From the NCBI GenBank assembly GCA_963932905.1, contig CAWVRN010000003.1, positions 32,001 through 96,000 on the forward strand: a stretch of 64,000 nt of DNA, given 5' to 3'. Shown here one piece after another: positions 938 to 27,223 of this stretch (positions within the stretch are counted from its first letter, which is position 1; the number at the start of each line of letters is the position of its first letter). The notes under the pieces are model-generated. The model made no database searches, was not told where the DNA came from, and saw nothing but the letters and a program-made list of their open reading frames with translations. This DNA comes from an uncultured Bdellovibrio sp. (GTDB lineage Bacteria; Bdellovibrionota; Bdellovibrionia; Bdellovibrionales; Bdellovibrionaceae). The translations under genes were made by a program, and so were the position numbers.

Positions 938-1060
938 GCGATGAAATTTGGCGACGTTTCTTGATATTTCAGAGTCGATTAGCAAAAACCAATTCTCGTG
1001 TTTTTAAGTACTTAGAACATTTTCATTTTTTTAATTTTCTGGATTTCTTCGAAAGAAGAA

Positions 1061-1112
<52 letters not shown>

Positions 1113-11008: not shown

Positions 11009-11014
11009 AGGTAA

Positions 11015-11641: not shown

Positions 11642-11676
11642 TAAAATTTAAATCTGTTGAGCTTAAGGTAAAACTA

Positions 11677-12309: not shown

Positions 12310-12396
12310 CTTTCTTGTTTAGAAGAACAGGAGCGCGAGTTTTCAAAACTTAGTGGTTACAGTTGAAGGGCATTTGATGTTGGTATTTAGGAAAAC

Positions 12397-13020: not shown

Positions 13021-13224
13021 AACACTTCTGTCGCTTGAAAACTGATGTCTTTCAGCGCTGATGTATAATTCTGGAAATATTTTGGCATCGATAGTTCGTT
13101 CGAACTCAGAAGCTCTATAAGCAATTCATGCAAAGAAAGGACATGTTTATGCCTCATTCATTTTCAAGCATACAGGAAGCAAATCAATAATGAGTGGATC
13201 GCATGGAAGCCAAATCTTAAAGAA

Positions 13225-13788
13225 ATGGAACGCTACAACCAAAAAAATAAAGAATTACCAGAGCGCTACTTAGCACGATGGCATTGGTCTCCGAGCTGGG
13301 CGTCGCAGTTAAAGTTTCCAATTATTATAAAAAAAGAATGGAAATCAGATCCATTCTTTGATGGCAGCGGAAGTTTTCACTATCACGCTATTATGACTAA
13401 CGAAGATTTAACTAAAAACAGCTATCAAGATATTTACGAGCGTTACGCTCAGCGGGCCAATATGGAGAACTTCATCAAAGAAGCTAAAATGAACTTTGAT
13501 GCCTATCATTTGCCGTGCTTAAGCTTTAAAGCCAACCATGCATTTTTGTTATTGCTTCTCACTGCGTTTAATCTACTTCGTTGGATTTCAGTGATCACAA
13601 AACCAGAGAAGCCGCACTATGCAAAAAAACTACGTCGTAGTTTTATTTTTCAAGCCGGAAAAATTCAGCTTAGATCCAGACAAGTCTTTCTAAAGGTATC
13701 AGAAAAGTATTTCAAGGAGGTGCAAAGACTAAAAGAGGCATGGGAATCACAGCCGATAAGAATTTTCCCACAGTTCTCCACAGCATAA
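13225..13788 (+). pseudogene. IS1380-family DDE transposase, C-terminal remnant
   Basis: Y..R...EN.IKE.K motif (YAQRANMENFIKEAK), then SFKANHAFL..AFNL and LRR.FI...GK; the N-terminal half is missing. Confidence 0.8.
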
Positions 13789-14015
13789 CTATGTCAGTCT
13801 GTGGATAAAAGTTAGATCCTTGAAAACCTAAATACGGAATCGGAAATATTTTTTTGATTTTGAATTTGGAGTGGACAAGGGTTTGAACCCACGAACGCTT
13901 AACATAACTAGGTTATACCACCATGAGCTTTGACGAAGGCTCGTAAAAATACTATTGTCCGCGCGATCCTGACGATGAGCACATCGCCTGTAAGTCCACT
14001 CATCTAAGAGGTTTT

Positions 14016-14031
14016 ACTGTCGAATTTTGGG
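14016..14031. mobile_element. Probable right terminal repeat of the IS1380 remnant (ACTGTCGAATTTTGGG)
   Basis: Resembles IS1380-family ends (...GAATTTAGG-like) and lies ~230 bp after the transposase; the left end was not found. Confidence 0.35.
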
Positions 14032-14121
14032 CATGACAGGGCCTCCTCGTTGCCTTCGGCAACGCTGGAACATTTAAATTTTCAAATTTTTAAAATTTCT
14101 ATATTTTTTTGCTCAGCAGAA

Positions 14122-14145: not shown

Positions 14146-14226
14146 CCTAAAGGGAAAAATGGTTGCAGGGAAATCCTGCTTGTCTTTTCATATAGTTACA
14201 CAATTTTGGCAGGGAATGGAAGGGTT

Positions 14227-15381
14227 TTATTTTGCCACCCTCGCGAGTGGCAAAATATCAGCATTCTTCGTCGATGGAACCTTAATTTGCAGCTTGTCCG
14301 TTGTGCCCATGAGTTCAGCACCCGATGAAACAAAGTATTCGTTTGTGGTAGCAATACGAGCGTGCCCAGCACTCTCCATTGTTACTCCTAGCGATACACC
14401 GTCGTTTAACATCAAAGTAATATAAGTTGACCTTAACTGGTGGTGCCGAATCTCTCGAATACCAATTTTTTTACAAAACTCTCGTAAAACTTGAGCTTGT
14501 CGTCCTTTTTCCCAGCCCAGGTTCTCAATCTCTATTACAAATTCGCTTTTAGCTCTTAATTTATATAAGCTCAAAAAAGGCATAATGAAAATAGGTATTG
14601 GAACCATCCTATCATTCCCATTTTTCAGTTTGTTAACAATTCCCTCTTTGGGTTTCTTCTGCCTACATAAGTGAGCCAGTCGCGTATTAAAATCTACATC
14701 CGACCATTTAAGACCAGCTAACTCGCTTCTTCGGAGACCTAAAGTCAAAGTTAGCAGCCAGATTAAAAAGAAAGGATGATTTTCCCGCTGTGCTTCAGAC
14801 AGTAGTTTTTCAACTTCTGAATGATTCAAAGCCGCCTTTTTCCTTTTTGGCCTACGACGATTCTTTAAATGAGCCATTGAATTGACTTTTAAAAAACCAG
14901 CTTCATGGGCAAAAACAAAAATGCATTTTACTTCTTTCTGTATATCATAGGCCCTCGACTCAGAGATCTTGCCTTCCTTAAGACGAGCATCGATATCTGA
15001 TTTAACAAATAACGGAGTAATTAGATCCAGTTTCTTAGAATTCCAATCGACCAAATGTTTTAAGCAGCCATTCTTATTTTCTATCGTTGCTGGACTCATA
15101 CCATTTATATTTTCTGGTGTTCGCTTATTTTGCTCCAACTTTTCTCTGTAATACTCGACAAGCTTCTGCCAGTTCTCAATCGTAGGGATATCCGGTCTTT
15201 CATAACGACACTGATGCCACAGCTGTTTGTATATCAATTCGGCTTTAGGGCGAGACTCTATTCCTCTTTTTTTTCTTTGTACCCTTTCGCCTGTATACTC
15301 ATTAATAGCTTCAGCCATAACCGTGTACACAGTTTTAAAAATTCCAGTCTTTACTTCCTTTTTTGAAATTGAAATTGCCAT
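14227..15381 (-). CDS. int: Tyrosine recombinase/integrase
   Basis: GLRRSEL (R), K, H-x-x-R (HQLR), GH and Y (GHARIATTNEY) catalytic set. Confidence 0.95.
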   Translation of the reverse strand: MAISISKKEVKTGIFKTVYTVMAEAINEYTGERVQRKKRGIESRPKAELIYKQLWHQCRYERPDIPTIENWQKLVEYYREKLEQNKRTPENINGMSPATIENKNGCLKHLVDWNSKKLDLITPLFVKSDIDARLKEGKISESRAYDIQKEVKCIFVFAHEAGFLKVNSMAHLKNRRRPKRKKAALNHSEVEKLLSEAQRENHPFFLIWLLTLTLGLRRSELAGLKWSDVDFNTRLAHLCRQKKPKEGIVNKLKNGNDRMVPIPIFIMPFLSLYKLRAKSEFVIEIENLGWEKGRQAQVLREFCKKIGIREIRHHQLRSTYITLMLNDGVSLGVTMESAGHARIATTNEYFVSSGAELMGTTDKLQIKVPSTKNADILPLARVAK

Positions 15382-15618
15382 TTAACCTCCTTGGATTAAA
15401 GAGACTATTTCTTTTTTCTTAAAACGAAGACTTTTCCCAAATAACCTGTATGACTTCAGTTTACCTTGATACACCCATTTCCGTATTTGTTTTGGAGATG
15501 TCCTCAAAAACTCAGCCACTTCTTTTGTGTTTAACCATATGCAATTTTCAAAGAGCATTTCTGACGATGATTTATTTTTATCAACGTCGTTGTTCGTTCT
15601 ATTTATATCGAATTTCAT
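15382..15618 (-). CDS. Excisionase-like HTH_17 DNA-binding protein
   Basis: WLNTKEVAEFLRTSPKQIRKWVYQGKLKSYR..LRF; abuts int. Confidence 0.85.
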   Translation of the reverse strand: MKFDINRTNNDVDKNKSSSEMLFENCIWLNTKEVAEFLRTSPKQIRKWVYQGKLKSYRLFGKSLRFKKKEIVSLIQGG

Positions 15619-15699
15619 TAAAAAAATCTATTTTAATTTTTTCAAATAAAATTTCAGATGCAATGCTCGTAATATCCAATAATCCATTTTTAACCATCA

Positions 15700-16062
15700 C
15701 TATTGCGAACTCTTCTCTACGGAATCTACTTTTAAATCCGCTTTAGCAGTACTGACAGAATCGCCTTTTGATTTCCGGCGAGGCGGCTTACTCATTGCGC
15801 TTGCAGCAAGCGATTCTCTAAGAGCCGCAATCAGTTCATCGTTGCTGGCGCTTCTTTTTAAATTCTCGCGCACAAGTTTTGATAAATTGGTAAACGCTTT
15901 AATCATAAATGGTTTTGAGGATTCAAAATGATTTGAGCTAAACTCGCGGACAATCCAAGATGTAATCTCCGAAGGGGTTACACTCACCCCTTTATTGGTT
16001 TTTAATTCTTTGGCCATCTGTTTTAAATCATTAGCGGCATCACTCGATAATATGACTCGCAT
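15700..16062 (-). CDS. Putative ribbon-helix-helix DNA-binding protein
   Basis: N-terminal strand RVIL, helix, then T-P-S-E-I helix pattern. Confidence 0.45.
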   Translation of the reverse strand: MRVILSSDAANDLKQMAKELKTNKGVSVTPSEITSWIVREFSSNHFESSKPFMIKAFTNLSKLVRENLKRSASNDELIAALRESLAASAMSKPPRRKSKGDSVSTAKADLKVDSVEKSSQ

Positions 16063-16068
16063 CAGATT

Positions 16069-16539
16069 TTACTTACCACCAGAGGGTTTCTTTTTGTGCC
16101 GCTTTGCCCACTCGGGTCGTTCAACAATAACTGATTCGCAGTGAGCCTCGATCAGCTTGTTTCCCCTGACGTCAGAATCAAAGCACTGCGTTTCAACCCT
16201 TGGTTGAGTCACAAAGTAGTCGCTTGGATCATCTTCACCGCTGGCAATACTCGGACGAGATACATTGAATCGATCTAGATTTAATAATGTTTCCTGACGA
16301 ACACGATTGTCCCTGTCTTCAAGACTTCCATGAATAAAATAACTTGTGGCAAGGCCAACGACCGCTCCAATCATAGCACCGTTGTTTTTGGCGTTATCAT
16401 TGTCCCTATCGATTTGGCTATTAAGTACCGCTCCACTGATGGCACCAATACCGGTACCTAGTAATAATGATTCTTTCATTGTTGCACATCCCATTAGTGA
16501 TATTACACTAATGCCCACTATTTGATTTCGTAATTTCAT
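16069..16539 (-). CDS. Lipoprotein with glycine zipper; TraV/VirB7-like
   Basis: Lipobox LMGC; GxxxG zipper; C-terminal P.V....D..G..L......V...W pattern reminiscent of TraV. Confidence 0.55.
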   Translation of the reverse strand: MKLRNQIVGISVISLMGCATMKESLLLGTGIGAISGAVLNSQIDRDNDNAKNNGAMIGAVVGLATSYFIHGSLEDRDNRVRQETLLNLDRFNVSRPSIASGEDDPSDYFVTQPRVETQCFDSDVRGNKLIEAHCESVIVERPEWAKRHKKKPSGGK

Positions 16540-16635
16540 AATTCTCCTTATAGAATTTTAAATTCCTTATATTTAAAACTGACTCTAACTTTTGCTTGTC
16601 AGTTGCTCGCTATTTCAATTATTTATAGCGCGTTC

Positions 16636-16666
16636 ACTAGCGGCGCGCCGTAACTACGCCGCTAGT
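16636..16666. repeat. GC-rich nested inverted repeat (candidate oriT)
   Basis: ACTAGCGGCG-N11-CGCCGCTAGT, overlapping the palindrome CGGCGCGCCG (16641-16650); next to the relaxase. Confidence 0.55.
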
Positions 16667-16678
16667 AAATTCAGCTTG

Positions 16679-17422
16679 TTATTTGATCTCGAATTTGACC
16701 TGATTTCGATTTACCAATGTCATTGATTCAGCTAGTGATCTGACATCCTGAAACAATATAAAATACATTTTAGAATGACCTTCGGGATGTAGCTCTCGCT
16801 CGATCTGCTGAATGGCCCTTACCGTCGACTCGTCTCTGCAAATATAAAAGACAAAATCTATTCCTGTGTTAACATAGTAATAAAGGATCTTGTCCCTATA
16901 TCTATCGATCCACTTCTTAGTTGGCTCATACTCAATAGCCACCGTTTTTAACTTTTCGTTCACTTTTAAAAACGCTGCCGCATCGGATTTCATATCAATC
17001 AGGGGTTTGAGTCTTACGTCAGAATGCAAATGGCCAAAGCATTGTAGCATGTTTTCAGTGAAATACTCTTCCAACATCAATGATTTTGCAAAACGGTTTC
17101 TAATATCTACTAATCCGACATCATGTTCAAAAGTGTAAGAATGAGTCGGCTTCTGGATGAATTCAACCTCAATAGTATTCATTGCATAAGCTAATCCCGA
17201 ATCAGTTAACTCGTAAAAAATGTCACTACGGCTGATTCGCTTTTGCATTTTGTCAGTGATGAATCCGACATTCAATAGCCGCTTTAGGTAATGGCTAAGG
17301 CTTTTTTTCCCAACGCTTGGAAAAATAGCCTGGTGAATTTGATTTCTGGTCATAACTTTGTTTTCAACAAGGCGCTCTAGCAAAAGCCTTTCACGAACAG
17401 TAAAAAGTTGTTTCTTTGCCAA
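16679..17422 (-). CDS. Replication-relaxation (Replic_Relax/MOBC-like, PD-(D/E)xK) relaxase
   Basis: N-terminal winged helix (TRNQI...LKRL...GF...YELT..G), HD motif (EHDVGL), D...ExE (SDA...AIEYE) and Y..K...Y. Confidence 0.75.
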   Translation of the reverse strand: MAKKQLFTVRERLLLERLVENKVMTRNQIHQAIFPSVGKKSLSHYLKRLLNVGFITDKMQKRISRSDIFYELTDSGLAYAMNTIEVEFIQKPTHSYTFEHDVGLVDIRNRFAKSLMLEEYFTENMLQCFGHLHSDVRLKPLIDMKSDAAAFLKVNEKLKTVAIEYEPTKKWIDRYRDKILYYYVNTGIDFVFYICRDESTVRAIQQIERELHPEGHSKMYFILFQDVRSLAESMTLVNRNQVKFEIK

Positions 17423-17424
17423 TT

Positions 17425-18912
17425 CTATTTAATACCTAAAGTAGGTTCAGCTTCATTCGTTGCTTCAACGATCGCCCTAAACGGCAACGAAAAATTTGAT
17501 CTGACGCCAGCTTCGTATTCAATCTTTATTTTATTGATTTCATCTTTCAATACGTCCTCTTTAACAAAAGGGGTTTGAACTTCCGTAAAAGTGGTCCCAT
17601 TTGCCCATACTGCACGCCCTTTAACGTCAGGGAGTTCAAATGCCATTTTATTTCCAAGTACGGTCAGTGATCCTTGAAGCGTATTTGCCCTGAAGCAAAT
17701 GCGACCACCCATATTTTCTTGAATTTTGGTATCAATGGTATCCGTAGTCACTTTTTGAGTTGCAATGATGAGATTCATTTTTGCAGCTCGACCTAGTTTT
17801 GCTAGATCGTCTGTTAGTTCTCGCGCTTGAGTCACATTTTTTGCGCGCTCTTTGCTGACTTTAGTCTTTCCATAAAGGACCGATGCTTCATCGACAGCAA
17901 TTACAATATAGTCCTTTTTATCCCTTTCTGGATCGATCGAAGTACGTCCATTTTTTTCTAAAAGATCAAAGCGGCTAATCATTTCTTGCCTTAGTTTAGC
18001 TAGAAGTAGATTCGCTTCGATTTCAGTTTTCGCAATGCTGACATTAGGTAAGCATGAAAATTCTTTCGCTTCGATGCCTTTTTTTAAGTCCAAAATGTAT
18101 ACTTGAATATTTTTGGTACTTTTAATTAAACTCAGAAGTGTTTGCTTAAAGAAATTACTTTTACCACCACCGGATGCCCCAGCGATCATCATATGTGGAA
18201 GACTCGACAAATATTGAATTTGAATTCCCGCCAGCGACTCACCGATAGGAAATGAAAGCGGTTCATTGATGGACTGAACCACATCTAAGTATGGAACCAT
18301 TGAAGGTATAATCTTGGTCGTGGTTAAAATTTCAACAAACTTGTTATTCGCTGTCGTCCTAATAGATTCAACTGTAGCGCCTAAGGCCATTTCAAGATCA
18401 GACTTTTTCTCTAAATACCGTTCAACACCAATTCCAATGCTAGATACTAAAACCCGCTGTCGATATTCGTCTAAATTTACAACTTTGCTAACTAAAGGCT
18501 CTCTTCCTTGTGCTGTTTTTAAACCTAGATGAGCTAACGCCTGAGAAATTTCTTTCTTTTTATCTTTCGTGACAATTCCAAATAAAAATCCAAAAAAGGC
18601 AATTGGACCAAGAATTAATATCAGCGTATGAATCAAAATCGGTAACGGCATTTCTTCGACTAAGATCTCAACTACAGTTGGCGTAAAAACATTTGGAAAA
18701 AATAAGTGCAACCATTTAAGATGTTTGTAGTTCCAAAATACCAATAGAAAACTTATCCAGCTCCATAAAAAGGCAATAAAATATAAACTCCTGAACCGAA
18801 TAAAAAGTTCGGCCGCTCCACGAATTGAAATTCCACCTAAAAATGAAAGAACTTTCAGGACCTCATCAAATCCTTTTGATGAATGACTCGCTTTGGCTTT
18901 TACCTGACTCAT
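17425..18912 (-). CDS. FtsK/SpoIIIE-type (TcpA-like) membrane ATPase, putative coupling protein
   Basis: N-terminal TMs; PHMMIAGASGGGKS; ILDLKKGIE; VIAVDE; LGRAAKMNLIIATQK. Confidence 0.85.
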   Translation of the reverse strand: MSQVKAKASHSSKGFDEVLKVLSFLGGISIRGAAELFIRFRSLYFIAFLWSWISFLLVFWNYKHLKWLHLFFPNVFTPTVVEILVEEMPLPILIHTLILILGPIAFFGFLFGIVTKDKKKEISQALAHLGLKTAQGREPLVSKVVNLDEYRQRVLVSSIGIGVERYLEKKSDLEMALGATVESIRTTANNKFVEILTTTKIIPSMVPYLDVVQSINEPLSFPIGESLAGIQIQYLSSLPHMMIAGASGGGKSNFFKQTLLSLIKSTKNIQVYILDLKKGIEAKEFSCLPNVSIAKTEIEANLLLAKLRQEMISRFDLLEKNGRTSIDPERDKKDYIVIAVDEASVLYGKTKVSKERAKNVTQARELTDDLAKLGRAAKMNLIIATQKVTTDTIDTKIQENMGGRICFRANTLQGSLTVLGNKMAFELPDVKGRAVWANGTTFTEVQTPFVKEDVLKDEINKIKIEYEAGVRSNFSLPFRAIVEATNEAEPTLGIK

Positions 18913-19910
18913 TTTTCCACATAGGTTTTTGTTAGGCTTACAATTATATCACGACCGGCTGGAATCGTAATATAGTCTTCGGTATCTTTGTAGGACTCGA
19001 TCTGTCGACTAGCTTCTTCCTGCGCCGAAGTGGATAGACCCTTCTTTATTGCATTCTCAAGGCTTGCTTTTGGCATAGTTTGGCCTAACGAGTTCATAGT
19101 TTCACGCTCAATCATTATTTCACTAGCACCCGAAGCAACACTCAGTCCGAGAGCAGCAAGTACCCGAGTATCAGACTCCGAGTTTGTATCACCGATCAGC
19201 CCAGTGGAATAGCTTTTAGGGTCCAGAACTTGGGCATTAATATCAAACTCCTGTTCCGATGGAAATAATCCCTTAGTGATTTGGATACCGACTTTGCGTC
19301 CTCGTCCAGAGTAAACAACCTGTCCAAAAAGAATAGTGCCTTTCGGAATTTCAGTTCCATATTTTGATCGACCACCATAGGGCAATAATATTTTTATCAA
19401 CTGTCCCGCCTCACGAGTGTCAATTGCCGTTAAAGTTTTTCCGATCATATTTGTTCCAATTGGGATGCTTCGCTCTGGGTCGCTAGTTCCATCGCGGACT
19501 ATAACTTGACCTGCTTTAAAGTTTATCTTTGCTGAGGGTATGCCTTGCATCGATCGCTCTTTACTGCCTCCGCCTCCACTTTTTGATACGGTTTTTCCTT
19601 CACTTAAAATTTTTCTCGCCGTGTCCGAATAGGTTCGCTTGTCATCGTGATCTAATTTCGATTCAGTCCTGGTTGGTTCTTTGGCAGCATCTACCAGTCG
19701 TTTCTCTGATTGCCCCAGAAAACTTGTGTCTTCATTACTTGATAAAACAAAAGCCGTAAGAATTAGCAAAAACAAAATAGGGCCTCCGAAGAGGCCCACT
19801 TGCTTTAGATTTATGACGTCTTTTTCGCCGTCTCGCTTCAAAAAAAACGCTTTAATGTTTGGAATTTTCCCTTTTAAAATATTCCATTTACATTTTTGTA
19901 CCGAATTCAT
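18909..19910 (-). CDS. VirB10/TrbI-like T4SS core protein
   Basis: One TM, low-complexity linker, IPIGT...IPKGT.L.G beta domain, C-terminal ITIPAG. Confidence 0.75.
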   Translation of the reverse strand: MNSVQKCKWNILKGKIPNIKAFFLKRDGEKDVINLKQVGLFGGPILFLLILTAFVLSSNEDTSFLGQSEKRLVDAAKEPTRTESKLDHDDKRTYSDTARKILSEGKTVSKSGGGGSKERSMQGIPSAKINFKAGQVIVRDGTSDPERSIPIGTNMIGKTLTAIDTREAGQLIKILLPYGGRSKYGTEIPKGTILFGQVVYSGRGRKVGIQITKGLFPSEQEFDINAQVLDPKSYSTGLIGDTNSESDTRVLAALGLSVASGASEIMIERETMNSLGQTMPKASLENAIKKGLSTSAQEEASRQIESYKDTEDYITIPAGRDIIVSLTKTYVEK

Positions 19911-20656
19911 AAAAATTCCTTTTTTAACGAAAAACTTTGATTTTCATTAGGTAATGATATCAACACCTTAATATCTTGTTTTAAAATACTAGAAAAAAAT
20001 ACACGTACTTTTGCTCCAGACTTACTTTCAATTTGAGATTTTTCTTTTACGATCATTTGCCTATCAAGGGTCAGACCATTTCGAACAACAAGTAGTTTTA
20101 AATCAGCGATATCCAATTTATTTTTTGTTACATTTTGTACAAATAAATCTAAAGCATTTAATTTCATTTCAGGAAGGTACTGAATATGCGCTGGTCTTAC
20201 AATCAAACCGTTTTTGAGTTTAACCTCAATACCCCGAATTTCCTTTCTCCTCGAAACCATAGCGGATCGAAAATTAAGTGTTGATCGCTGTCGATTTGTA
20301 GAATCCCATTCTATCTTTACAAGATCATCGTGATTAACACTTCCCACTTTGAGATAGAATCCATAGGTGCGACTCTCAGTATAGACAAACATATTGGTTT
20401 TGATTTGCCCGTGTGGTTGAATCGCAATATCATTTTCAATGAACTCGATCCCAAAATAGTTTTGATTTCCAATTACTATTTTCTTTGGCTTATCTTTAAA
20501 TCTTAAGACCGTTGACTTTCCCATGCTAAGGTTAATTGATTCCATTGCACTTGGCCCTGCTGTAACAGATCTAACTCCACCAGCTAAGGCAACATTGCAC
20601 AATGCCAGTATTCCAAGCGCTAGCACCAATAACCTAATCGCCTTTCGTGCCTTCAT
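19907..20656 (-). CDS. VirB9/TraK-like secreted T4SS core protein
   Basis: Signal peptide; STVLRF..P...IG...TNMFVYTESRTYGFYL; position in the operon. Confidence 0.65.
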   Translation of the reverse strand: MKARKAIRLLVLALGILALCNVALAGGVRSVTAGPSAMESINLSMGKSTVLRFKDKPKKIVIGNQNYFGIEFIENDIAIQPHGQIKTNMFVYTESRTYGFYLKVGSVNHDDLVKIEWDSTNRQRSTLNFRSAMVSRRKEIRGIEVKLKNGLIVRPAHIQYLPEMKLNALDLFVQNVTKNKLDIADLKLLVVRNGLTLDRQMIVKEKSQIESKSGAKVRVFFSSILKQDIKVLISLPNENQSFSLKKEFL

Positions 20657-21260
20657 GCTCTATGATACCGTTTACATATAGACCAAGAAGGTTCCAGTTA
20701 GTAACAGGACCATCAACAATTTGAAAGGACGCCTCACAGGGAACAACAAGAGGAATTCCCGCAATGCGAAGCACTTTATCATATGTCGCCGTGATTTCTT
20801 TTTCACTCACCTTGATTTTAATATGGGCAATGTCTTGAGAAACCGCCTGGTTTTTAAAATCCCGATCTCTTCTTTGAAGAAGAAGAATTTTAATTTTTTC
20901 AGTTAAAGCATCGCTCGTAAAAGGGCTTATTTCTTTTACGATTTTATCGGGTTCTAGTTTTTCCCATTTAAAATAAAGAAACAAATAGTCCGACAAGAAA
21001 CGACTAATTTGATCTTCATCAATTTTAAACGGCTTAGATTCACTTCTGAGTGGTATCTTATTCAATCCATCGTCATAAATCACAAGCGGTGACTTAAGCG
21101 ACTGAAATAGCACGACACATAGTAAAAGCATTCCAATTCCGGCACAGACCGCGCCGACTAGTTTATAAAGCTGTAACTGGTTATTTGTCTCAATCCAGTG
21201 GTCTAATGATGATTTCACTGTTTTTAAATTTTCTTTTTTCAAACTATCTTCGTTTGTCAT
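20634..21260 (-). CDS. VirB8/TraE-like bitopic protein
   Basis: One TM, NTF2-like layout, C-terminal N..GLYV motif. Confidence 0.7.
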   Translation of the reverse strand: MTNEDSLKKENLKTVKSSLDHWIETNNQLQLYKLVGAVCAGIGMLLLCVVLFQSLKSPLVIYDDGLNKIPLRSESKPFKIDEDQISRFLSDYLFLYFKWEKLEPDKIVKEISPFTSDALTEKIKILLLQRRDRDFKNQAVSQDIAHIKIKVSEKEITATYDKVLRIAGIPLVVPCEASFQIVDGPVTNWNLLGLYVNGIIEHEGTKGD

Positions 21261-22197
21261 TATTTCCTTTTCTTAAATCTTTAGGTAAAAATAGATTTTC
21301 ATATGTTTTTTTCATTTCATTCAGTTTTGGATTCACTCGACGCTTGAGCAATTCAGCTCTACCGACAAAGGGGTTCGTCATAGGCTTTGCCGCAAACTTT
21401 CCACCTGATACCACACCGCTCGCTATACCTTTAGCAAGTTTTGCCATTTGTGCTTTAAGCGCAACCCCTGTTGCCATTGTGGGAACAGCCGTGATGGCGG
21501 AAGCCGCGCTTTCCATACCATCATTAAGAAGTGATCTTGTCGCAATCGGAATGAAGAGCATACTAAGACCGATGGATAAATTAATGATTATAGACATCAA
21601 ATAATCTTCCATGCCAGTGACTTTGGGATTCATCGCTAATTTTAATAGCAACACCCCAAGAAGACTCCACAATATTTTCCAGAGCACAACTTGCACTAAA
21701 CCCTTGTAAAGACTAAACGTAACATGCTCAGTTTGCCGGGCCACATAAGCCAGTATCATCAGTGGCGAGCAGACAAATAATATAGTCCACACAAAGTGGA
21801 TCATCGCATTGGAAATAAAAAAACCAAGATAGGCGATGATATAGGCGGCAATATTAAAAATATAAAGTGCCGTTTCTCTTAGATTAAACCAGTCATTGCT
21901 AGCACTATTATAATTTGGCCCTAGATTTTTTAAAACGTCCCACAGTTTTTGAAGCCCGTCGATTTTTTCAGTAATGCTATCACCAATTGTCGCAATAGAG
22001 TTTAGCGTGATGTCAAAACTATATAGCAATAAAACTGAAACCAAGACCCGTCGAAAAATATCTTTAACATCTGGCTCATCACTTTTTAAAAATTCCATTA
22101 CTAGCAGTAGTAGAACAAGCGGAACAATAAGAACCCAGTAGGTCGAAACCAGCTCTGTACGCAGACTTCGACCCACATCGCTTAGATAATCAAACAT
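21244..22197 (-). CDS. VirB6/TrbL-like polytopic membrane protein
   Basis: Several TMs with a central periplasmic loop, SPL motif and Gly/Ala-rich tail. Confidence 0.7.
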   Translation of the reverse strand: MFDYLSDVGRSLRTELVSTYWVLIVPLVLLLLVMEFLKSDEPDVKDIFRRVLVSVLLLYSFDITLNSIATIGDSITEKIDGLQKLWDVLKNLGPNYNSASNDWFNLRETALYIFNIAAYIIAYLGFFISNAMIHFVWTILFVCSPLMILAYVARQTEHVTFSLYKGLVQVVLWKILWSLLGVLLLKLAMNPKVTGMEDYLMSIIINLSIGLSMLFIPIATRSLLNDGMESAASAITAVPTMATGVALKAQMAKLAKGIASGVVSGGKFAAKPMTNPFVGRAELLKRRVNPKLNEMKKTYENLFLPKDLRKGNNDKRR

Positions 22198-22926
22198 CTA
22201 GAATTTTATTAGACTCATTTTCGGATTTAGTTCTTGAAAGCTTTTCCCAAGATCCTGATTCACTCGCTGAAAGTTAGAAACACTATCTTTACCCATTTTA
22301 TTTTGCATCCCAAATTGCTCGCTTTGTAGCTTTAGCATCTGAGTATTAAGACGAATCAATTGAGACAGTGATCTCAGAATCTGCGCGCTGGTTTCAGCCT
22401 GCATTCTCATGGCTCCTTTGGGCGATGCCGCACGGCTGTCAATGGCCACTCGAATTGAGTTTTCTTCTTGCTTTACCGAGTATTCCTTGAAGTCATTTAT
22501 CATTCTCAAACTTTCAGAAATAGTTTGGTCATGCAGTCTTTGCATTAACTCTTCTTTACTTTTAGGAACGGCGCCGTAAATTTCTGATATTTTTTCCACC
22601 GCCTTTTTGAAATTGCGTATTTCAGATAGTACTCTTTCATCCTTGATGGGCAACGATTCGATAAGACCCAAAGAGTTATCTAGGCCAGAGTTAACTAGGC
22701 GTAGGTAATCCCGTTGGTCTTTAGCTAGTTCGATCATGGTTTTAAGTTGATAGTACCTTCGAATATTTTCCTCCAATATTTTAATCAGGTATGTCACTTG
22801 GGTCCATCCAGATCCGTCAGTAAAAGCAGCCGCTTTGGGCGGGTTCGCAAGACCAAAAACGACTACAACTAAGATAGGCATAAAATAAAGCCGCATTGAC
22901 ACGTTTTCTAATTTAGCTACTTTCAC
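22198..22926 (-). CDS. VirB5/TrbJ-like secreted helical protein
   Basis: Signal peptide, coiled-coil Gln-rich helices; sits between VirB4 and VirB6. Confidence 0.6.
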   Translation of the reverse strand: MKVAKLENVSMRLYFMPILVVVVFGLANPPKAAAFTDGSGWTQVTYLIKILEENIRRYYQLKTMIELAKDQRDYLRLVNSGLDNSLGLIESLPIKDERVLSEIRNFKKAVEKISEIYGAVPKSKEELMQRLHDQTISESLRMINDFKEYSVKQEENSIRVAIDSRAASPKGAMRMQAETSAQILRSLSQLIRLNTQMLKLQSEQFGMQNKMGKDSVSNFQRVNQDLGKSFQELNPKMSLIKF

Positions 22927-25340
22927 GTCTTGTCCACTCCGTTTTCAAAAGCCAGTCTTTGCAGAATTTGAATTTTTGATTCATTCGGATATTTATTCTC
23001 CATTTCTTGAATTTTTGCTTTTTCATTTCCGTCACTAGTGCAAATCCAGTAACTCAGTGGTTCGGGAACTAGTCTTAGTATGGCCTGATTCTCGTCTTGA
23101 ATGAGATAAAATTCAGAGTACTTTCCTTTTACGATTTCTAGGCTTTTTATCGCTTCCACTTGAGAGTCATTAAAATCAAAGCTTGATTTAAAATCACTCC
23201 AGTCAATTTTTCGTTGTCGCAATATAAACACATTTGTTGTGTTTGGCATTAAACTCTCCGCTAGGTCTTTATCAGATAAAAAATCCCGGTAATTTTGAGA
23301 AATACAATAAATGCCGGCATTGTACTTCCTGAATGTACGAAAACAATCTATCGCAAAATCTCTTCCACTTTCTGTTTTAAAAAGGCGCTGGGCCTCATCG
23401 ATTATAAGCAAGTACGGAGTTTGAAGGTCTCTCGCGGCTTCTGTCTTTATGTAACTTGTAAAAAGAAGTAAAAAAATGTCCTTCAGTTCTCGATGATTAT
23501 CTAAACCTTTAATTTCAATCGTGATTAAATCTGACTTTAATTTTACGTTGCTTTGCCGATCCAGCATCCGTCCATAGGCAGTGTCACCGGTCCAAGAAAA
23601 TAATATTTGAGCATATTTTCTCATTTCAGTTTCAGCGTGCTCTGAAAGAATTGATTTTAAATCTGATAAAACCGGAACTCTATCTTTTACATTTTGGTAC
23701 ATTCTAAAAATGGACTCTTCAAGAAGGGCCTTTTCCCGTTTAGGAAGTCCCTTTTTATCTTCATCCTTTAAAATCAGCTCTAACACTCCAAGCATCATTT
23801 TAATTCGTGATGGACTGGGTGACGATTCTCCGTCTTCCAGGTCAAATAAATTAATCGAGATTCCCGATTCTAACGTCAGATCAATAAACTCGCCATCTAA
23901 CACTTCTAACAACCGTTGCGATGAAGCGCCGTTATCAATCCAAATAATTTTCGGACTTGGTTCTTGCCCGTAGAATTGAAGCATTAACTGCGCAACGCTA
24001 AACGATTTACCTGAACCGCTTCCTCCAAACACAAGCCCATTCCAGTTAGGAAGCTCCTTAGCAAACGGGTCTAATGAAAAAAGTGAATTTTCCCTATTTG
24101 GTAGTAAACATACTGGCCTAGAATTACCTGACCAGCCGGAATAAAAGGGCAACAGATGGGCAGCGTTTGAGGTTTTGATTTTCTTAAGCCTAAACCCTTT
24201 ACAAATGGAGGGTGCGGCGGCCAAAAATGCATCAAGACCCGCGTAAGTTTCCTGAATTCCTTCGGCCTGATTTAACGATCGAAAAGACCGCAGAACTTCA
24301 TCGGTTTTTGTTTCAAGTTCTTCTTGATTGCTTGCCCAGATGATTACATTAAAATCCATCAACACAATCTTTTCAGAGCCTTCATGAAGTTCACGCGCTA
24401 GATTTTCAATATGTTCAAGCTGAGTTTCGCTTTCAATGTCAGATACATTTTTACTACCAGAGGCCATAGATCGGGCAACTCGTCGACTCAGTTCCAACTT
24501 ACTTAGCTCCTTTTTTTGATTCAGTGTTTTTAAATTTTGACTGATCCATAAATGAAATGGAAGCTTTGTAAAATTCTCAATCATCGCAGCATGAGTGTTT
24601 CCTTCAGGTAGTATTGCTAGCGTCAATACCCGAAATTTCAAATCGCCGATTGAAATTGCATCTTTATCCACACTCATGTCACTTAAAACAACTTGGTCAG
24701 ATAGAGTGTGATCAACCGAAATTGGACGAAGATGGGGAGGTCCCATGTTTTCCACTCGATGTTTATTAAAATAAGTGAAAATATTTTTGTACCACTCGAT
24801 TGGATCAATTTCACATGGAAGCAGTCCGGCTGATTGAAGGCCGCTATATATAAGCGTGAGTGTTCTTTCAAATTTTTGTCGATGCTGCGCGTACTCTTTC
24901 TTTGTCATGATCTCAAATAATTCTCGTTTTTCCCAAAATCGTCTTTGTTTCAAACGATAACTTGCAGACCTTACATAAACGAAAATTTCAGGGACAAAGT
25001 ACTGTCGATTCTCGGCGTTGTCTCTAAGAAAGTGGACTCTCGCCTTACGAATTGGCTGATAGCTCTCTTTACAGTTTAGGGACACATCTTCATGTTTTTG
25101 AATAATATTTTCCATCTCATGATTTAATTTGTAAAATAGCTGCAAAGAGTAGTCTTCAGGTAATGAATTTAGCAGCCCCTCTATTTTTTCCGAAAAATAG
25201 TTCACTTCGGTTGGAGTTTTTAAGCTAATATCATTTCCAATAATTTTAAATCCGGCACCTAGGGAGCCGTCATTAAAAACGACTAAATTGTCGTCTAGAT
25301 GCCATAACCCTAGCATGTCTTTAATGTGATTTGCCATCAA
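22923..25340 (-). CDS. virB4: VirB4/TraC-family T4SS ATPase
   Basis: Walker A GGSGSGKS, IDNGAS, INLFD, Walker B LLIIDEA, FRKYN..ISQ. Confidence 0.92.
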   Translation of the reverse strand: MMANHIKDMLGLWHLDDNLVVFNDGSLGAGFKIIGNDISLKTPTEVNYFSEKIEGLLNSLPEDYSLQLFYKLNHEMENIIQKHEDVSLNCKESYQPIRKARVHFLRDNAENRQYFVPEIFVYVRSASYRLKQRRFWEKRELFEIMTKKEYAQHRQKFERTLTLIYSGLQSAGLLPCEIDPIEWYKNIFTYFNKHRVENMGPPHLRPISVDHTLSDQVVLSDMSVDKDAISIGDLKFRVLTLAILPEGNTHAAMIENFTKLPFHLWISQNLKTLNQKKELSKLELSRRVARSMASGSKNVSDIESETQLEHIENLARELHEGSEKIVLMDFNVIIWASNQEELETKTDEVLRSFRSLNQAEGIQETYAGLDAFLAAAPSICKGFRLKKIKTSNAAHLLPFYSGWSGNSRPVCLLPNRENSLFSLDPFAKELPNWNGLVFGGSGSGKSFSVAQLMLQFYGQEPSPKIIWIDNGASSQRLLEVLDGEFIDLTLESGISINLFDLEDGESSPSPSRIKMMLGVLELILKDEDKKGLPKREKALLEESIFRMYQNVKDRVPVLSDLKSILSEHAETEMRKYAQILFSWTGDTAYGRMLDRQSNVKLKSDLITIEIKGLDNHRELKDIFLLLFTSYIKTEAARDLQTPYLLIIDEAQRLFKTESGRDFAIDCFRTFRKYNAGIYCISQNYRDFLSDKDLAESLMPNTTNVFILRQRKIDWSDFKSSFDFNDSQVEAIKSLEIVKGKYSEFYLIQDENQAILRLVPEPLSYWICTSDGNEKAKIQEMENKYPNESKIQILQRLAFENGVDKT

Positions 25341-25647
25341 TTCGAACTCCTATTATTTTTTTCCGATTTAAATCATTTTCTCCCGCAGCAAAGAATCCGT
25401 TGCTTAGATAGAATCTAAGTAAATGGATAAGATAGTCGTCGGGCTTTCCTCTTTTTCCAAAATATAAAATGCTTAGTAAAAGTGCTGGCAAGACAATCAC
25501 AAAAATAAATGAAAATGAGGTGCGACCAAAAAATAGGTTCATTACAGAAGCAAATATAAGAACCGCTAAAATGTCGGGGGCTTCCATGCCCCCAATTCTA
25601 ATTTTAGCGTCCAGCTTCCTGTGGACAGTTGATTCTTTATACTCCAT
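25321..25647 (-). CDS. VirB3/TraL-like membrane protein
   Basis: Two TMs, HR.LD...IGG, GKPD..L.H; directly upstream of virB4. Confidence 0.75.
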   Translation of the reverse strand: MEYKESTVHRKLDAKIRIGGMEAPDILAVLIFASVMNLFFGRTSFSFIFVIVLPALLLSILYFGKRGKPDDYLIHLLRFYLSNGFFAAGENDLNRKKIIGVRIDGKSH

Positions 25648-25958
25648 TACATCCCTGAAATACTTTGAAGCCAGCGGATCAACATCGGCGCCAAGAACCC
25701 AACAATACTTGCAACAGCCACTAACACCATTCTAGACTTTGCCTCAGCATCGCCGGTAGCCGCGAGTATCGCCGCATACACAAGCCCTAAAACACTCACT
25801 GCCGGTAGCAGCACATTAACAAGTCCCTTTGTTACACCGCCGACCTTACTCTGAAAATCTCCTCCTCCGTACTGGGCAAATGAGAGTTCCGGTACAAATA
25901 AGGTAATGCTGATAAAGGCAAGAGTACCCAACACAATCCAAGATTGATTTTTATTCAA
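25647..25958 (-). CDS. VirB2/TrbC-like conjugative pilin
   Basis: Long signal ending PELSFA, then two hydrophobic helices. Confidence 0.8.
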   Translation of the reverse strand: MNKNQSWIVLGTLAFISITLFVPELSFAQYGGGDFQSKVGGVTKGLVNVLLPAVSVLGLVYAAILAATGDAEAKSRMVLVAVASIVGFLAPMLIRWLQSISGM

Positions 25959-25961
25959 ACT

Positions 25962-26300
25962 CTACTCTTCTGCATAAAGTGATAGAATTCGGGTATAGGG
26001 TCCTAGCTCCATGTATATGTATGGGCCACCTGCACGGGAGCTTTTTCCTATACCAATGGGTGAGGATCTAACAAATTTACCATCTTTTCTAAGACTCACA
26101 TCGACTCGGTAATGGACGGTGTCACCGTCGGAGCCGGTTGGCCTTAAGAAAATGTACTTATCATCTGGCATGGCATCAACTTTAAGTCGAAATTCACCCT
26201 TATCTTCGTGGTAAAATGCCACTCCCGCCGGAAATTTTCTGCCGGTTTCCTTATCAATCCATTCAAGATCTAATTTTTTATTTTTTACTTTATTTTCCAT
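25962..26300 (-). CDS. Hypothetical beta-rich protein with internal two-fold repeat (DUF736-like)
   Basis: AGVAF...G.FRLKVD.P and IGIG....G.YIYMELGP halves. Confidence 0.45.
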   Translation of the reverse strand: MENKVKNKKLDLEWIDKETGRKFPAGVAFYHEDKGEFRLKVDAMPDDKYIFLRPTGSDGDTVHYRVDVSLRKDGKFVRSSPIGIGKSSRAGGPYIYMELGPYTRILSLYAEE

Positions 26301-26348
26301 AGTTATTTTTCCTTCCTAGAAACTAGTTTTTTGTTTAGCTACTCTGTT

Positions 26349-26594
26349 TTAAGCAGCTTTTAATTTTAAAAGTTCTTCTCTCATTAAGCTCAGCGCTTTC
26401 GCATGAGTTACTTGCACATCATAAAGTTCCATGCCAAGCGTTTGAGCAATGTGTTTTAGACCCATTCCTAGCCAATATCTTAGATACACGATGGCCCTTT
26501 CATCCTGTGGTAGATCCATAGCTATTTGTTTGACCTCCATTTTTTCTTTATCGCCTAACGGAAAACTCCATGTTTTCTGTTTTTCTATTTTCAT
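26349..26594 (-). CDS. Stand-alone sigma70 region-4 HTH protein
   Basis: LPQDERAIVYLRYWLGMGLKHIAQTLGM....V....KAL..MR. Confidence 0.8.
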   Translation of the reverse strand: MKIEKQKTWSFPLGDKEKMEVKQIAMDLPQDERAIVYLRYWLGMGLKHIAQTLGMELYDVQVTHAKALSLMREELLKLKAA

Positions 26595-26607
26595 GTGTAA
26601 CTACCCA

Positions 26608-26823
26608 TTATCCTAAAAAGTGCATTCGCATAAATTTAAGTTCATTTTCGCGCTTGATTTCATCGATCTTACGATCGTCAATTTCATAACTAAATATTCT
26701 CTTCCAAAAACTTGTCTTTAATTTCTTCTCTTCCAGTTTTTTTATGTTTTGATTCATTTCTTTAGGCGCATTCTTTATCGTCATTAGCGGCCTCCAAACT
26801 GTTGCAGATTTCATTCTCTTCAT
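26608..26823 (-). CDS. Small hypothetical protein
   Basis: ORF within the ICE leader operon; the start is probably internal. Confidence 0.4.
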   Translation of the reverse strand: MKRMKSATVWRPLMTIKNAPKEMNQNIKKLEEKKLKTSFWKRIFSYEIDDRKIDEIKRENELKFMRMHFLG

Positions 26824-26980
26824 AGGAAGTCATTTGCTTTGCTTCTCTTAGCGCTTGCAAGTTCGCTGTATCAGCATCGCTCCAATAATCTTCAAAATAA
26901 AAACAACTCACGCAGTGTGAATACGTCCGCAGAACCTCTAAAATTCCCCCGCAGCGCGGGCATCTTTGTGTTATTGCCAT
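26762..26980 (-). CDS. Zinc-ribbon protein (CPRC...CVSC)
   Basis: Two CxxC pairs; AAGGGGG RBS; first gene of the transfer operon. Confidence 0.6.
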   Translation of the reverse strand: MAITQRCPRCGGILEVLRTYSHCVSCFYFEDYWSDADTANLQALREAKQMTSYEENEICNSLEAANDDKECA

Positions 26981-27223
26981 AATTGGCCCCCTTTAAAAGG
27001 ACGCTTGTTTTAATGTCCTTTCACCAATTACTAATGCAAAAAGAGATAGACTTTGTGCCAGCAGATTAAAATATTGAATTTACTAGCAGATTCTATCTGC
27101 TGAAAAAAATACCTAGGTCAGGTAAGTTCGTTTTTGCGGAGTTTGAGTTCGCATAAAATAAAAATAGTCGCTGATTTGCTTTAGGTAGGCTCAAGTCGCT
27201 AAGGCACTCTTGTTAATAACCAG

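Follow-up and report, generated by a model that had tools for sequence, protein, structure and literature searches.

An FtsK/TcpA-like ATPase on a VirB9/VirB10-type channel in a putative family of integrative and conjugative elements from Bdellovibrionota

In this study, we analysed a stretch of 64,000 nucleotides from an uncultured Bdellovibrio sp. (contig CAWVRN010000003.1, positions 32,001 to 96,000; hereafter the window), in which a run of genes of about 13 kb encodes parts of a type IV secretion system (T4SS). This run is probably the integration and conjugation backbone of an approximately 59-kb integrative and conjugative element (ICE), which sits in the 3' end of a tRNA-Met gene, uses an FtsK/TcpA-like ATPase as coupling protein and belongs to a family found across Bdellovibrionota. 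The combination of a Gram-negative-style channel with a Gram-positive-type DNA pump, singled out as unusual in the original prediction for this DNA, is real, is conserved across related loci and is unreported in the literature searched. That prediction was largely right in what it observed, while its framing as a compact ICE was wrong and part of its gene naming is unsupported.

In their cited sections, published accounts divide conjugation into diderm systems with VirD4 and a TcpA type that is restricted to Firmicutes and accompanied by non-canonical relaxases (PMC3548315, PMC12857230, PMC5357655). The family described here, present in about a quarter of the sampled genomes of its phylum, equips a VirB9/VirB10 channel with an ATPase of the TcpA/FtsK type and a relaxase candidate of the nuclease type. 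If functional, it would indicate that the TcpA-type solution is not bound to the monoderm envelope and that coupling proteins are interchangeable modules. Surveys that require VirD4 or a canonical relaxase may then undercount ICEs in Bdellovibrionota.

In the proposed mechanism, the integrase and the excisionase Xis would excise the ICE at a 7-bp core. A protein of 247 amino acids (aa) would bind and nick the origin of transfer (oriT), for which the best candidate is an inverted repeat directly 3' of its own gene. A membrane-anchored, hexameric FtsK/TcpA-like ATPase would replace VirD4 and feed the DNA to the secretion system; for this replacement we observe homology, and the ATPase gene stands where sister modules have VirD4. 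The channel would be a minimal diderm T4SS made of a pilin, VirB3, VirB4, a VirB6-like protein, VirB9, VirB10, two unassigned proteins at the places of VirB5 and VirB8 and a lipoprotein with a glycine zipper, with neither VirB11 nor a lytic transglycosylase. We infer the steps of excision, nicking and transfer from homology, gene position and comparative structure.

The coupling ATPase and the relaxase candidate

The ATPase (495 aa) carries the Walker A motif GASGGGKS and the Walker B motif DEAS, and its residues G245, G250, K251, S252, D341 and E342 are invariant in 23 sequences. A 19-mer hydropathy scan found N-terminal hydrophobic segments at residues 40-61 and 83-117, which point to a membrane anchor. 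In a search of all sequences of the Protein Data Bank (PDB), the best matches were the entries 6o1z, 6o1x and 6o1w, titled 'DNA translocase coupling protein' (E 2.3e-23, residues 122-453), followed by FtsK (E 6.5e-9) and then EccC, and VirD4, TrwB and DotL chains were absent among the matches at E<=1. We identify the three entries with TcpA of plasmid pCW3 because they agree with the description of the TcpA structure in a review and because the same gene is the top plasmid match. None of the Pfam domains T4SS-DNA_transf, TrwB_AAD_bind and TraG-D_C was detected on the ATPase at E<=0.01. In a comparison with 72,556 plasmids, in which pCW3 itself was among the matches, the nearest genes were those for TcpA in the pCW3 family (28% identity, E 2e-19) and FtsK-like ones on Bacillus plasmids (30%, E 9e-24); among the 1041 plasmid records with a match, not one covers at least 80% of the query.

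We calculated a maximum likelihood tree of 29 proteins, with 16 Bdellovibrionota ATPases from three module types. The references were TcpA and TcpB of pCW3, TcpA of Enterocloster, a Tn916-type protein, TraB of pSG5, three Bacillus/Priestia proteins, the genome's own FtsK and four VirD4 proteins, several of these rows being long branches. All 16 Bdellovibrionota ATPases form one clade (support 96/91) on the FtsK/TcpA/TraB side of the tree, and the four VirD4 proteins lie across a 99/98 split from them. By sequence comparison, the ATPase is of the TcpA/FtsK type and not a VirD4, in line with the original prediction, and the tree that had been proposed as a check does not group it with VirD4.

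The gene following that of the ATPase encodes the 247-aa protein, which was predicted to be a MOBC-like relaxase with a PD-(D/E)xK fold. Its match to the Pfam family Replic_Relax (PF13814) is marginal, with 25.6 bits and a cut-off of 25.3, and 16 of 21 relatives match the same family, with a best E of 1.1e-12. An AlphaFold model built from 21 sequences has a mean pLDDT of 93.1. Residues 1-85 of the model match winged helices of the MarR/PadR type (Z 10-12.5), a whole-chain Foldseek search lists FokI and Cdn1 too, and a PDB sequence search with the whole protein gave nothing meaningful (E 0.53).

Because fold searches with the whole model were swamped by winged-helix regulators, the C-terminal domain (residues 90-247) was folded alone (pLDDT 93.4). 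In the VIA comparison it matched the nuclease domain of LlaBIII (Z 8.9), AF1548 (8.1), R.BspD6I (8.1), BstEII (7.9), N.BspD6I (7.7), BsaWI (7.6), SdaI (7.6), PaqCI (7.2), Cdn1 (7.1) and FokI (7.0). Can2, NucS, Card1, Bax1, AgeI, Vsr, NgoMIV, HindIII, Cfr10I and others follow in lower rows, and nucleases, judged by their titles, make up about 30 of the 50 rows. The top Foldseek rows were BsaWI (E 1.6e-2, probability 0.96), PaqCI and BamHI, with none at E<=0.001. LlaBIII, BsaWI, FokI and other matched nucleases presumably share the PD-(D/E)xK fold, and the weight of the predicted nuclease fold comes from the consistency of this list.

In an alignment that includes distant paralogues, H100, E123 and D147 are invariant, and D101, E164, K170 and R174 are at least 90% conserved. 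D147 begins a strand in the models and E164 sits in the next one, and we read D147/E164/K170 as a putative D...E..K pattern of the PD-(D/E)xK superfamily. PF13814 has been equated with the CONJscan profile MobC in the cited part of Coluzzi et al. (PMC5357655), and the relevant section of a nomenclature review describes MOBC relaxases as PD-(D/E)XK-related, with an active site confirmed by mutagenesis (PMC12857230). As modelled, the 247-aa protein is a member of the Replic_Relax family with a winged helix and a nuclease fold, and thus a relaxase candidate of the predicted kind.

About 20 bases past the inverted repeat that follows the relaxase gene lies the motif ATTGAAAT. The repeat is kept, with changes, in the second copy of the element on contig C1 of the same genome and in the related copy L036. 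The survey took in the 71 loci in which no fewer than 120 bases follow the stop codon of the relaxase gene, with arms of at least 8 bases and 20 shuffles as control. An inverted repeat lies within 110 bases of the stop in 43 of these loci (shuffles: mean 6.15, maximum 9), and TTGAA[AT] follows within 45 bases of the repeat in 14 (shuffles: mean 0.15, maximum 1). The sequences of the arms vary between elements, and several loci have one arm repeated directly upstream. Repeat and motif would fit a relaxase-specific recognition hairpin beside a more conserved site.

A 386-bp block near the tRNA end of the element was also considered as oriT and rejected, with two small minus-strand open reading frames (ORFs; 66 and 58 aa) and weak repeats only. 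This block is more conserved between the two paralogous ICEs than the coding backbone.

Sister modules and distribution in the phylum

The 4.55-Mb genome contains at least eight related T4SS modules, on contigs C1, C3 (the contig of the window), C11, C12, C22 and C45, and in addition a MOBP/VirD4 module on C16. Three modules (C3:233500, C11 and C45) have an FtsK-like ATPase with 27-29% identity to that of the window, C11 and C45 being without VirB4. In three others (C12, C1:519000 and C22) a VirD4-type gene, matching TraG-D_C, T4SS-DNA_transf and TrwB_AAD_bind, lies between the VirB10 gene and the relaxase-like gene. Overall, the slot between VirB10 and the Replic_Relax-like gene is occupied by a VirD4-type gene in three modules and by an FtsK-like gene in five. 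The profile of the relaxase family matches ten ORFs of the genome (E 1.7e-82 to 1.4e-7), and each module has one of them at its side. TrwC, MobA_MobL and TraI_2 relaxases are absent from the genome, and its single MOBP relaxase is on C16. The four VirD4-type genes of the genome are on other contigs or far from the window element, and no canonical relaxase or type IV coupling protein (T4CP) was found in the element or near it on its contig, where the original prediction had seen a possible refutation. Some T4SS modules of this genome carry large serine recombinases and N6/N4 DNA methylases, not a tyrosine integrase.

A VirB4 tree (21 rows, quick search, SH-aLRT support only) places the window type in one clade (100). 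The FtsK-like-coupled module of C3 groups with the three VirD4-coupled modules (98), and TcpA-coupled loci with an F-type gene order group with the VirD4/MOBP module of C16 (100). Since the VirB4 clades mix coupling types and the ATPase clade is monophyletic, the simplest reading is that, in these T4SS lineages, coupling genes of the VirD4 and the FtsK type may have replaced one another on two or more occasions. A bolder version, to which we give little credence, holds that the ATPase was swapped more than once between VirD4 and FtsK/TcpA within one diderm T4SS and MOBC-like lineage, and that the FtsK type may move the element through the VirB9/VirB10 channel in a form unlike relaxase-piloted single-stranded DNA, e.g. 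as double-stranded DNA or without a covalent pilot. For pCW3, the suggestion that it possibly moves double-stranded DNA is reported in the cited part of the review (PMC12857230). Should the bolder version hold, these ICEs would offer a naturally matched set for working out what is really required of a coupling protein.

Matches to the ATPase at E<=1e-25 were found in 96 of 401 genomes of the phylum, in 86 of 337 high-quality genomes and in 78 of 203 genera, the window genome included. For the analysis of gene order, the search patterns picked out 600 stretches in species-representative genomes, 111 of which had a gene for a relative, and the best 80 went into the analysis. Almost all of these 80 loci are from metagenome-assembled genomes labelled Bdellovibrionaceae, Pseudobdellovibrionaceae, Bacteriovoracaceae, Oligoflexia or 'Deltaproteobacteria'. 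The 18 window proteins were compared with the 80 loci by tblastn (counts in Table 1), many loci being cut by contig ends. The relaxase gene directly follows the ATPase gene in 73 of them, and the recurring order is orf112-B2-B3-B4-B5-B6-B8-B9-B10-ATPase-relaxase-lipoprotein. About ten loci combine the same ATPase and relaxase with another, F-ordered set (TraE, TraK_C, TrbI, TraC) and xis-int. The synteny survey called for in the original prediction hence shows a module that recurs as a family. One locus (L081) labelled Candidatus Nomurabacteria (Patescibacteria) contains the ATPase-relaxase pair at 38% and 28% identity, which could be a binning error or a transfer beyond the phylum.

Alternatively, the ATPase and the Replic_Relax protein might act not as coupling protein and relaxase but in the upkeep of the excised element, by initiating its replication and taking care of segregation or dimers, as may be the case on Bacillus plasmids and phage-plasmids. 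Transfer would then take place without a dedicated coupling protein or via a borrowed VirD4. On plasmids of Bacillus thuringiensis the two genes are found in this order as well, with partition and phage genes as neighbours; the two stretches examined there contain no T4SS genes, and the pair could therefore serve replication or segregation. The family is named 'replication-relaxation', and four VirD4-type genes elsewhere in the genome could be borrowed. Nevertheless we consider a maintenance role unlikely: the ATPase gene overlaps the end of the VirB10 gene and has the relaxase gene next to it in most loci, sister modules hold VirD4 in this very slot, followed by the same relaxase-like family, and the N-terminal anchor is typical of coupling proteins. 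Moreover, the best solved relative of the ATPase is a coupling protein, called a T4CP in the cited section of the review (PMC12857230).

Channel genes, extent and cargo of the element

As predicted, a run of 18 co-oriented minus-strand ORFs with short or overlapping junctions extends over 14227-26980 (Table 1). Families were assigned with Pfam and NCBIfam scans against curated cut-offs, and topology was judged with a simple hydropathy scan, no topology predictor being used. None of the scanned ORFs of the run is a VirD4, VirB11, VirB1 or HUH relaxase, in agreement with the earlier description. The predicted names int, xis, Replic_Relax, FtsK ATPase, VirB10, VirB4, sigma-r4 and Zn-ribbon were confirmed. 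VirB9, VirB3 and VirB2 are seen only weakly, below curated cut-offs, VirB6 is weakly supported via relatives and paralogues, and the labels DUF736-like, TraV-like, RHH, VirB5 and VirB8 gained no confirmation from family searches.

The window VirB9 is below the CagX cut-off, and its paralogues in the same genome exceed it; VirB9 and VirB10 are marks of diderm T4SSs, as the prediction had noted, and the channel has both. All NCBIfam VirB4 models score the window VirB4 far below their cut-offs, which, together with the MOB-suite call for a Myxococcus plasmid given below, hints that standard MOB/MPF typing may miss the system, as the original prediction supposed. Besides a signal sequence, the pilin shows two hydrophobic segments, and one paralogue scores above the TrbC cut-off. 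Overlapping hydrophobic stretches cover residues 18-67 of the VirB3-like protein. The protein in the VirB6 position has no match itself, and three of 18 relatives and two own-genome paralogues match TrbL below cut-off. For the VirB8 position, a paralogue with 26% identity matches TraE, and two distant own-genome paralogues match VirB8 or TraE above cut-off. Paralogues at 24-31% identity thus lend indirect support to the VirB6 and VirB8 positions. None of 20 relatives each of the VirB5- and VirB8-position proteins (four references with internal stops excluded) matches a Pfam family, and PDB profile searches gave nothing below E 0.2. The hydropathy pattern agrees with the VirB roles: the VirB6-position protein is polytopic, those in the VirB8 and VirB10 positions are bitopic, and those in the VirB9 and VirB5 positions have signal sequences.

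No search supports a TraV identity for the 156-aa lipoprotein. It is a possible VirB7-like outer-membrane partner, and paralogous modules encode the same kind of glycine-zipper lipoprotein. For the 120-aa protein labelled RHH, neither Pfam nor NCBIfam gave a family. None of 19 members of the 112-aa family matches DUF736 at E<=1 or has a meaningful match to any Pfam family, and a PDB profile search gave no match; DUF736 is the nearest named atlas cluster at only 0.76, a lead. The three genes at the regulatory head of the operon are kept only in close relatives (5, 4 and 2 of the 80 loci), and the non-coding leader in front of them is likely the promoter/operator.

Table 1. Features of the element, with coordinates of the window or, beyond its end, window equivalents
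Feature	Position	Strand	Evidence and remarks	Related loci with gene (of 80)
attL junction	14154-14168		core TGGTTGC at 14160-14166, the last bases of tRNA-Met read on the plus strand	
Tyrosine integrase, 384 aa	14227-15381	-	Pfam Phage_integrase, E 1.9e-18	22
Excisionase-type helix-turn-helix protein (Xis), 78 aa	15382-15618	-	HTH_17, E 4e-13; TIGR01764 34.7 bits, above cut-off	16
120-aa protein	15700-16062	-	no Pfam or NCBIfam family	19
Lipoprotein with glycine-zipper region, 156 aa	16069-16539	-	glycine-zipper matches below or near cut-off; lipobox LMGC	50
Candidate oriT	16600-16678	-	inverted repeat 16633-16669 with 13-bp arms, directly 3' of the relaxase gene; ATTGAAAT at about 16613-16618	
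Relaxase candidate, 247 aa	16679-17422	-	divergent Replic_Relax/MOBC-like; winged helix 1-85 and C-terminal PD-(D/E)xK-like domain	
FtsK/TcpA-like ATPase, 495 aa, putative coupling protein	17425-18912	-	FtsK_SpoIIIE (PF01580), E 8.9e-13	
VirB10/TrbI-like protein, 333 aa	18909-19910	-	TrbI, E 2e-13, above cut-off; one N-terminal transmembrane segment	53
VirB9/CagX-like protein, 249 aa	19907-20656	-	signal peptide; CagX 28.4 bits (cut-off 34.2); TIGR VirB9, E 4e-8	48
Bitopic protein in VirB8/TraE position, 208 aa	20634-21260	-	one transmembrane segment; no family match	47
Polytopic VirB6/TrbL-like protein (weak), 317 aa	21244-22197	-	at least five hydrophobic segments	46
Secreted helical protein in VirB5 position, 242 aa	22198-22926	-	signal sequence; no family	44
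VirB4 ATPase, 805 aa	22923-25340	-	closest model TraC-F-type, E 1e-80, 271.6 bits (cut-off 567)	51
VirB3/TraL-like membrane protein (weak), 108 aa	25321-25647	-	TraL, E 3e-3	36
VirB2/TrbC-type pilin, 103 aa	25647-25958	-	TrbC 26.8 bits (cut-off 27.9)	33
Conserved 112-aa protein (orf112)	25962-26300	-	upstream of pilin gene	31
Sigma-70 region-4 protein	26349-26594	-	Pfam/NCBIfam confirmed; regulatory head of operon	
71-aa ORF	26608-26823	-	regulatory head of operon	
4-Cys zinc-ribbon ORF, 72 aa	26762-26980	-	CPRC...CVSC motif read in translation	
Conserved non-coding leader	26981-27175		nested inverted repeats; backbone common to same-integrase copies ends at 27175	
Metal-resistance cargo	27176-64000, on to 73535		about 38 kb	
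Collinear block 1	15600-27152		80.5% nucleotide identity to C1 copy	
Collinear block 2	65120-72207		78.4% identity; DUF4135, histidine kinase, solute-binding protein, MFS transporter, sigma-54 response regulator	
Collinear block 3	72299-72683 (L143:8299-8683)		83.7% identity, 386 bp	

No direct repeats beyond chance flank 14227-26980, and a tRNA/tmRNA scan and an Rfam scan of the window gave no tRNA, tmRNA or Rfam family. The real att cores were found once copies of the element had been compared. The same-integrase copies L036 and G280:C39 (integrase 90% identical) align to window 14154-27175. The left end of the element reads GAAAAATGGTTGC, followed across the junction by AGGG. An intact tRNA-Met gene lies outside the window at C3:105536-105612, equivalent to window 73536-73612, and begins on the plus strand with TGGTTGCGGAGG. 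A search of 76 kb for TGGTTGC[AG]G gave just three positions, 1061, 14160 and 73536. In G280, the integrase end abuts a homologue of window 928-1055, the downstream flank of a tRNA-Met fragment, with the joint GAAGAATGGTTGC and then AGGG. In another related genome, G400, the sequence left of the window attL adjoins tRNA-Met with no ICE, a 470-bp integrase remnant lying between them.

The paralogue on C1 has TGGCGGA about 80 bp beyond its integrase gene, and the same seven bases begin a tRNA-Ser gene 36.4 kb away; its integrase is only 26% identical to that of the window. Three collinear blocks span the whole length of the window and C1 elements (Table 1), and in G280 the five-gene sensor/transport block follows 2.7 kb after the backbone. 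The element thus reaches to about window-equivalent 73535, or some 59 kb, and not 13 kb as first proposed. It possesses what defines an ICE, namely an integrase with an excisionase, a T4SS, a relaxase candidate and att repeats (7-bp cores) at a tRNA gene. An exact empty site was not found, as G349 has no usable flank matches and G400 keeps the integrase remnant. At G400:C90 ~60180-60740 (L150), in the same genus, a truncated tyrosine-integrase C-terminus was seen beside tRNA-Met, with the ICE absent there.

A compact, autonomous ICE of about 13 kb (14154-27175), with the metal region, the five-gene block and tRNA-Met as separate islands or chromosome, is improbable. It would explain why homology to the G280/L036 copy ends at 27175 and to the C1 copy at 27152, and all genes needed for transfer are within the 13 kb. 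In 24 of the 80 relatives a tRNA or tmRNA gene comes right after the integrase, so that those elements need not be long there. However, there is no core or att-like repeat at 27175, and the tRNA-Met, 59 kb away, is the only place where the core returns. The C1 paralogue has the same design with tRNA-Ser, two more collinear blocks with 78% and 84% identity lie near the tRNA end, and the five-gene block of G280 is the same as in the window element.

Some observations weigh against the 59-kb ICE with a TcpA-like coupling protein that we favour. The Bdellovibrionota clade, TcpA, the Bacillus pair and FtsK form a polytomy in the ATPase tree, and the plasmids or phage-plasmids on which the Bacillus pair resides show no T4SS genes over the two stretches examined. 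The window protein only just clears the Replic_Relax cut-off, the NCBIfam model MobC_subf gives a weak whole-length match (22.9 bits with a cut-off of 200, E 4.3e-5), and the fold matches of the nuclease domain are middling (Z at most 8.9; best Foldseek E 1.6e-2). Instead of an oriT, the inverted repeat 3' of the relaxase gene could be a transcription terminator. The shortness of the att cores (7 bp) is a further weak point, as is the position of the right end beyond the window. Finally, the 24 relatives with an intact tRNA or tmRNA gene beside the integrase show another arrangement, with this gene on the opposite strand 3.9-6.2 kb after the ATPase start; the family therefore appears to target tRNA and tmRNA genes in more than one arrangement.

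Bdellovibrionota are a predatory phylum, and one might suspect a T4SS used for DNA release or uptake or for protein delivery to prey, or a decaying relic, as at least eight related modules are present, two of them fragmentary (C11 and C45, without VirB4), and VirB11 is missing; this is very unlikely, since every one of the 18 ORFs in the window copy is intact, an integrase and Xis of its own, a relaxase-like gene and att cores belong to the element, and two diverged copies (80% nucleotide identity) with swapped integrases occupy two tRNA genes of one genome, as expected from repeated acquisition by transfer.

We read the dense heavy-metal and arsenic resistance region at 27224-64000 as cargo of the ICE. 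It comprises arsC, an ECF sigma/anti-sigma pair, three RND systems with outer-membrane factors and HMBD-domain adaptors, a multicopper oxidase, cupredoxins, three DUF305 genes, a CsoR-like repressor, MerR, a P-type ATPase, a CDF transporter, two ArsR genes and FTR1. In place of these genes, the C1 copy has a 2704-aa Rhs protein. Such a large metal-resistance load in a predatory lineage is of ecological interest with regard to gene flow between predators and prey communities.

Outside the element, the 52 bases at window 1061-1112 repeat the 3' part of tRNA-Met without a mismatch and bound a separate Rhs island of about 13 kb. This island (3083-13788), in tandem with the ICE, encodes a 2641-aa Rhs-repeat protein within 3083-11008, small downstream ORFs (one with a weak Ntox46 match) and a truncated DDE transposase. 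Left of attL, window 13594-14100 is repeated in five places of G349 and occurs in G280 and G400, with a part that is 91% identical to contig C31 of the same genome. A tRNA-like 3' end noticed by eye at 13867-13960 on the minus strand received no ARAGORN or Rfam call and was rejected; it lies in a repeat shared with relatives.

Comparison with known conjugation systems

Guglielmini et al. detected homologues of TcpA in Firmicutes alone, co-localised with VirB4 of the mating-pair formation (MPF) type MPF_FA (PMC3548315), and the 2025 nomenclature review confines the TcpA family to a subset of MPF_FA systems (PMC12857230), as far as the cited sections go. TcpA/FtsK coupling proteins were described as typical of monoderms in the original prediction. 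Its statement that MOBC pairs with VirD4 is borne out for streptococcal mobilizable elements, in which MobC occurs with VirD4 and never with TcpA in the cited part of Coluzzi et al. (PMC5357655). In open-licence full texts of PubMed Central and bioRxiv we found no description of TcpA/FtsK-type coupling on a diderm T4SS or of such ICEs in Bdellovibrionota, though subscription papers could hold one. The label 't4cp2' of CONJscan-based papers, considered as a possible TcpA, turned out not to mean TcpA. The proposal of a distinct class holds insofar as no described ICE family of such make-up was found, but the pair of FtsK-like and Replic_Relax proteins is also present in Bacillus.

This Bacillus pair, FtsK/SpoIIIE and replication-relaxation proteins of plasmids and phage-plasmids, shares families, order, overlapping ends and the ATPase domain (30% identity, E 9e-24) with the window element. 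It differs in its shorter proteins (ATPase 393-431 aa, partner 181-204 aa) and in the two stretches without T4SS genes. Such pairs are common on Bacillus plasmids, and therefore the DNA-processing pair is not unprecedented. The literature searched contains no account of its function, and a phage paper lists a Replic_Relax gene merely among plasmid-like genes (PMC7685451). The overlapping pair was seen at L125:8617-10351 and L126:8590-10402 of Bacillus thuringiensis plasmids, one being a phage-plasmid, and 440 of the 1041 plasmid records matching the ATPase are from Bacillus (310) and Priestia (130).

With F-type (MPF_F) systems the channel shares the best VirB4 model, TraC-F-type, a TraL-like VirB3, and matches to TraE and TraK_C in paralogues and in the sister variant. 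It differs in that VirB4 reaches only 271.6 of 567 bits and 22% identity to IncC TraC, and the F hallmarks TraU, TraW, TraN, TraF, TraH and TrbC (F-specific) were not found in the Pfam scan of the run. As to MPF_T, VirB4_CagE scores 183.4 bits with a cut-off of 643, and no T2SSE/VirB11, SLT or VirD4 families occur in the run. The nearest VirB4 genes on plasmids are those of Thermus and Myxococcus plasmids (24-26% identity), and both plasmids examined carry VirD4-type genes. These two, Myxococcus stipitatus pYRE (L124; VirB4 with the best E-value) and Thermus thermophilus pAA2-2c (L153), have compact pilin-VirB3-VirB4 clusters, and MOB-suite types both as non-mobilizable.

Streptomyces TraB and TdtA of Thermus thermophilus are likewise FtsK-superfamily ATPases exporting DNA, TdtA in a diderm according to the cited part of its description (PMC5365140). 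Unlike the window element, these systems need neither a T4SS nor a relaxase, and TraB is apart from the Bdellovibrionota clade in the tree. The order coupling ATPase-relaxase-excisionase-tyrosine integrase is that of the Tn916/ICEBs1/ICESt3 superfamily and of streptococcal integrative and mobilizable elements, as given in the cited text of Coluzzi et al. (PMC5357655), and on an Enterococcus plasmid an FtsK-like gene is followed by MobT. The relaxases of the Tn916/ICEBs1/ICESt3 elements, in contrast, are MOBT proteins and thereby Rep_trans rolling-circle initiators, their hosts are Firmicutes and their T4SS is of the monoderm FA type.

MOBC relaxases (pAD1 TraX, CloDF13 MobC) are comparable in the Replic_Relax matches of 16 of the 21 family members and in having repeats and an inverted repeat beside the relaxase gene. 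The repeats next to the window relaxase gene presumably resemble the oriT of pAD1. A restriction-endonuclease-like catalytic domain with conserved acidic and Lys residues is another common trait, judging from the cited section of the review (PMC12857230). The window protein, however, is very divergent (MobC_subf 22.9 versus 200 bits) and is paired with a TcpA-like ATPase, not with VirD4.

The Tcp locus of pCW3 has an N-terminally anchored ATPase with an FtsK/SpoIIIE domain, TcpA being the best solved relative of the window ATPase, and the ATPase gene is likewise located beside relaxase and T4SS genes (tcpM-tcpA on pCW3). The ATPases are only 28% identical, and the sister relation to TcpA is a polytomy in the tree. 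pCW3 itself has a monoderm T4SS without VirB9 and VirB10 and a relaxase of the tyrosine-recombinase type, TcpM, whereas the window element combines a channel containing VirB9 and VirB10 with a nuclease-type relaxase candidate.

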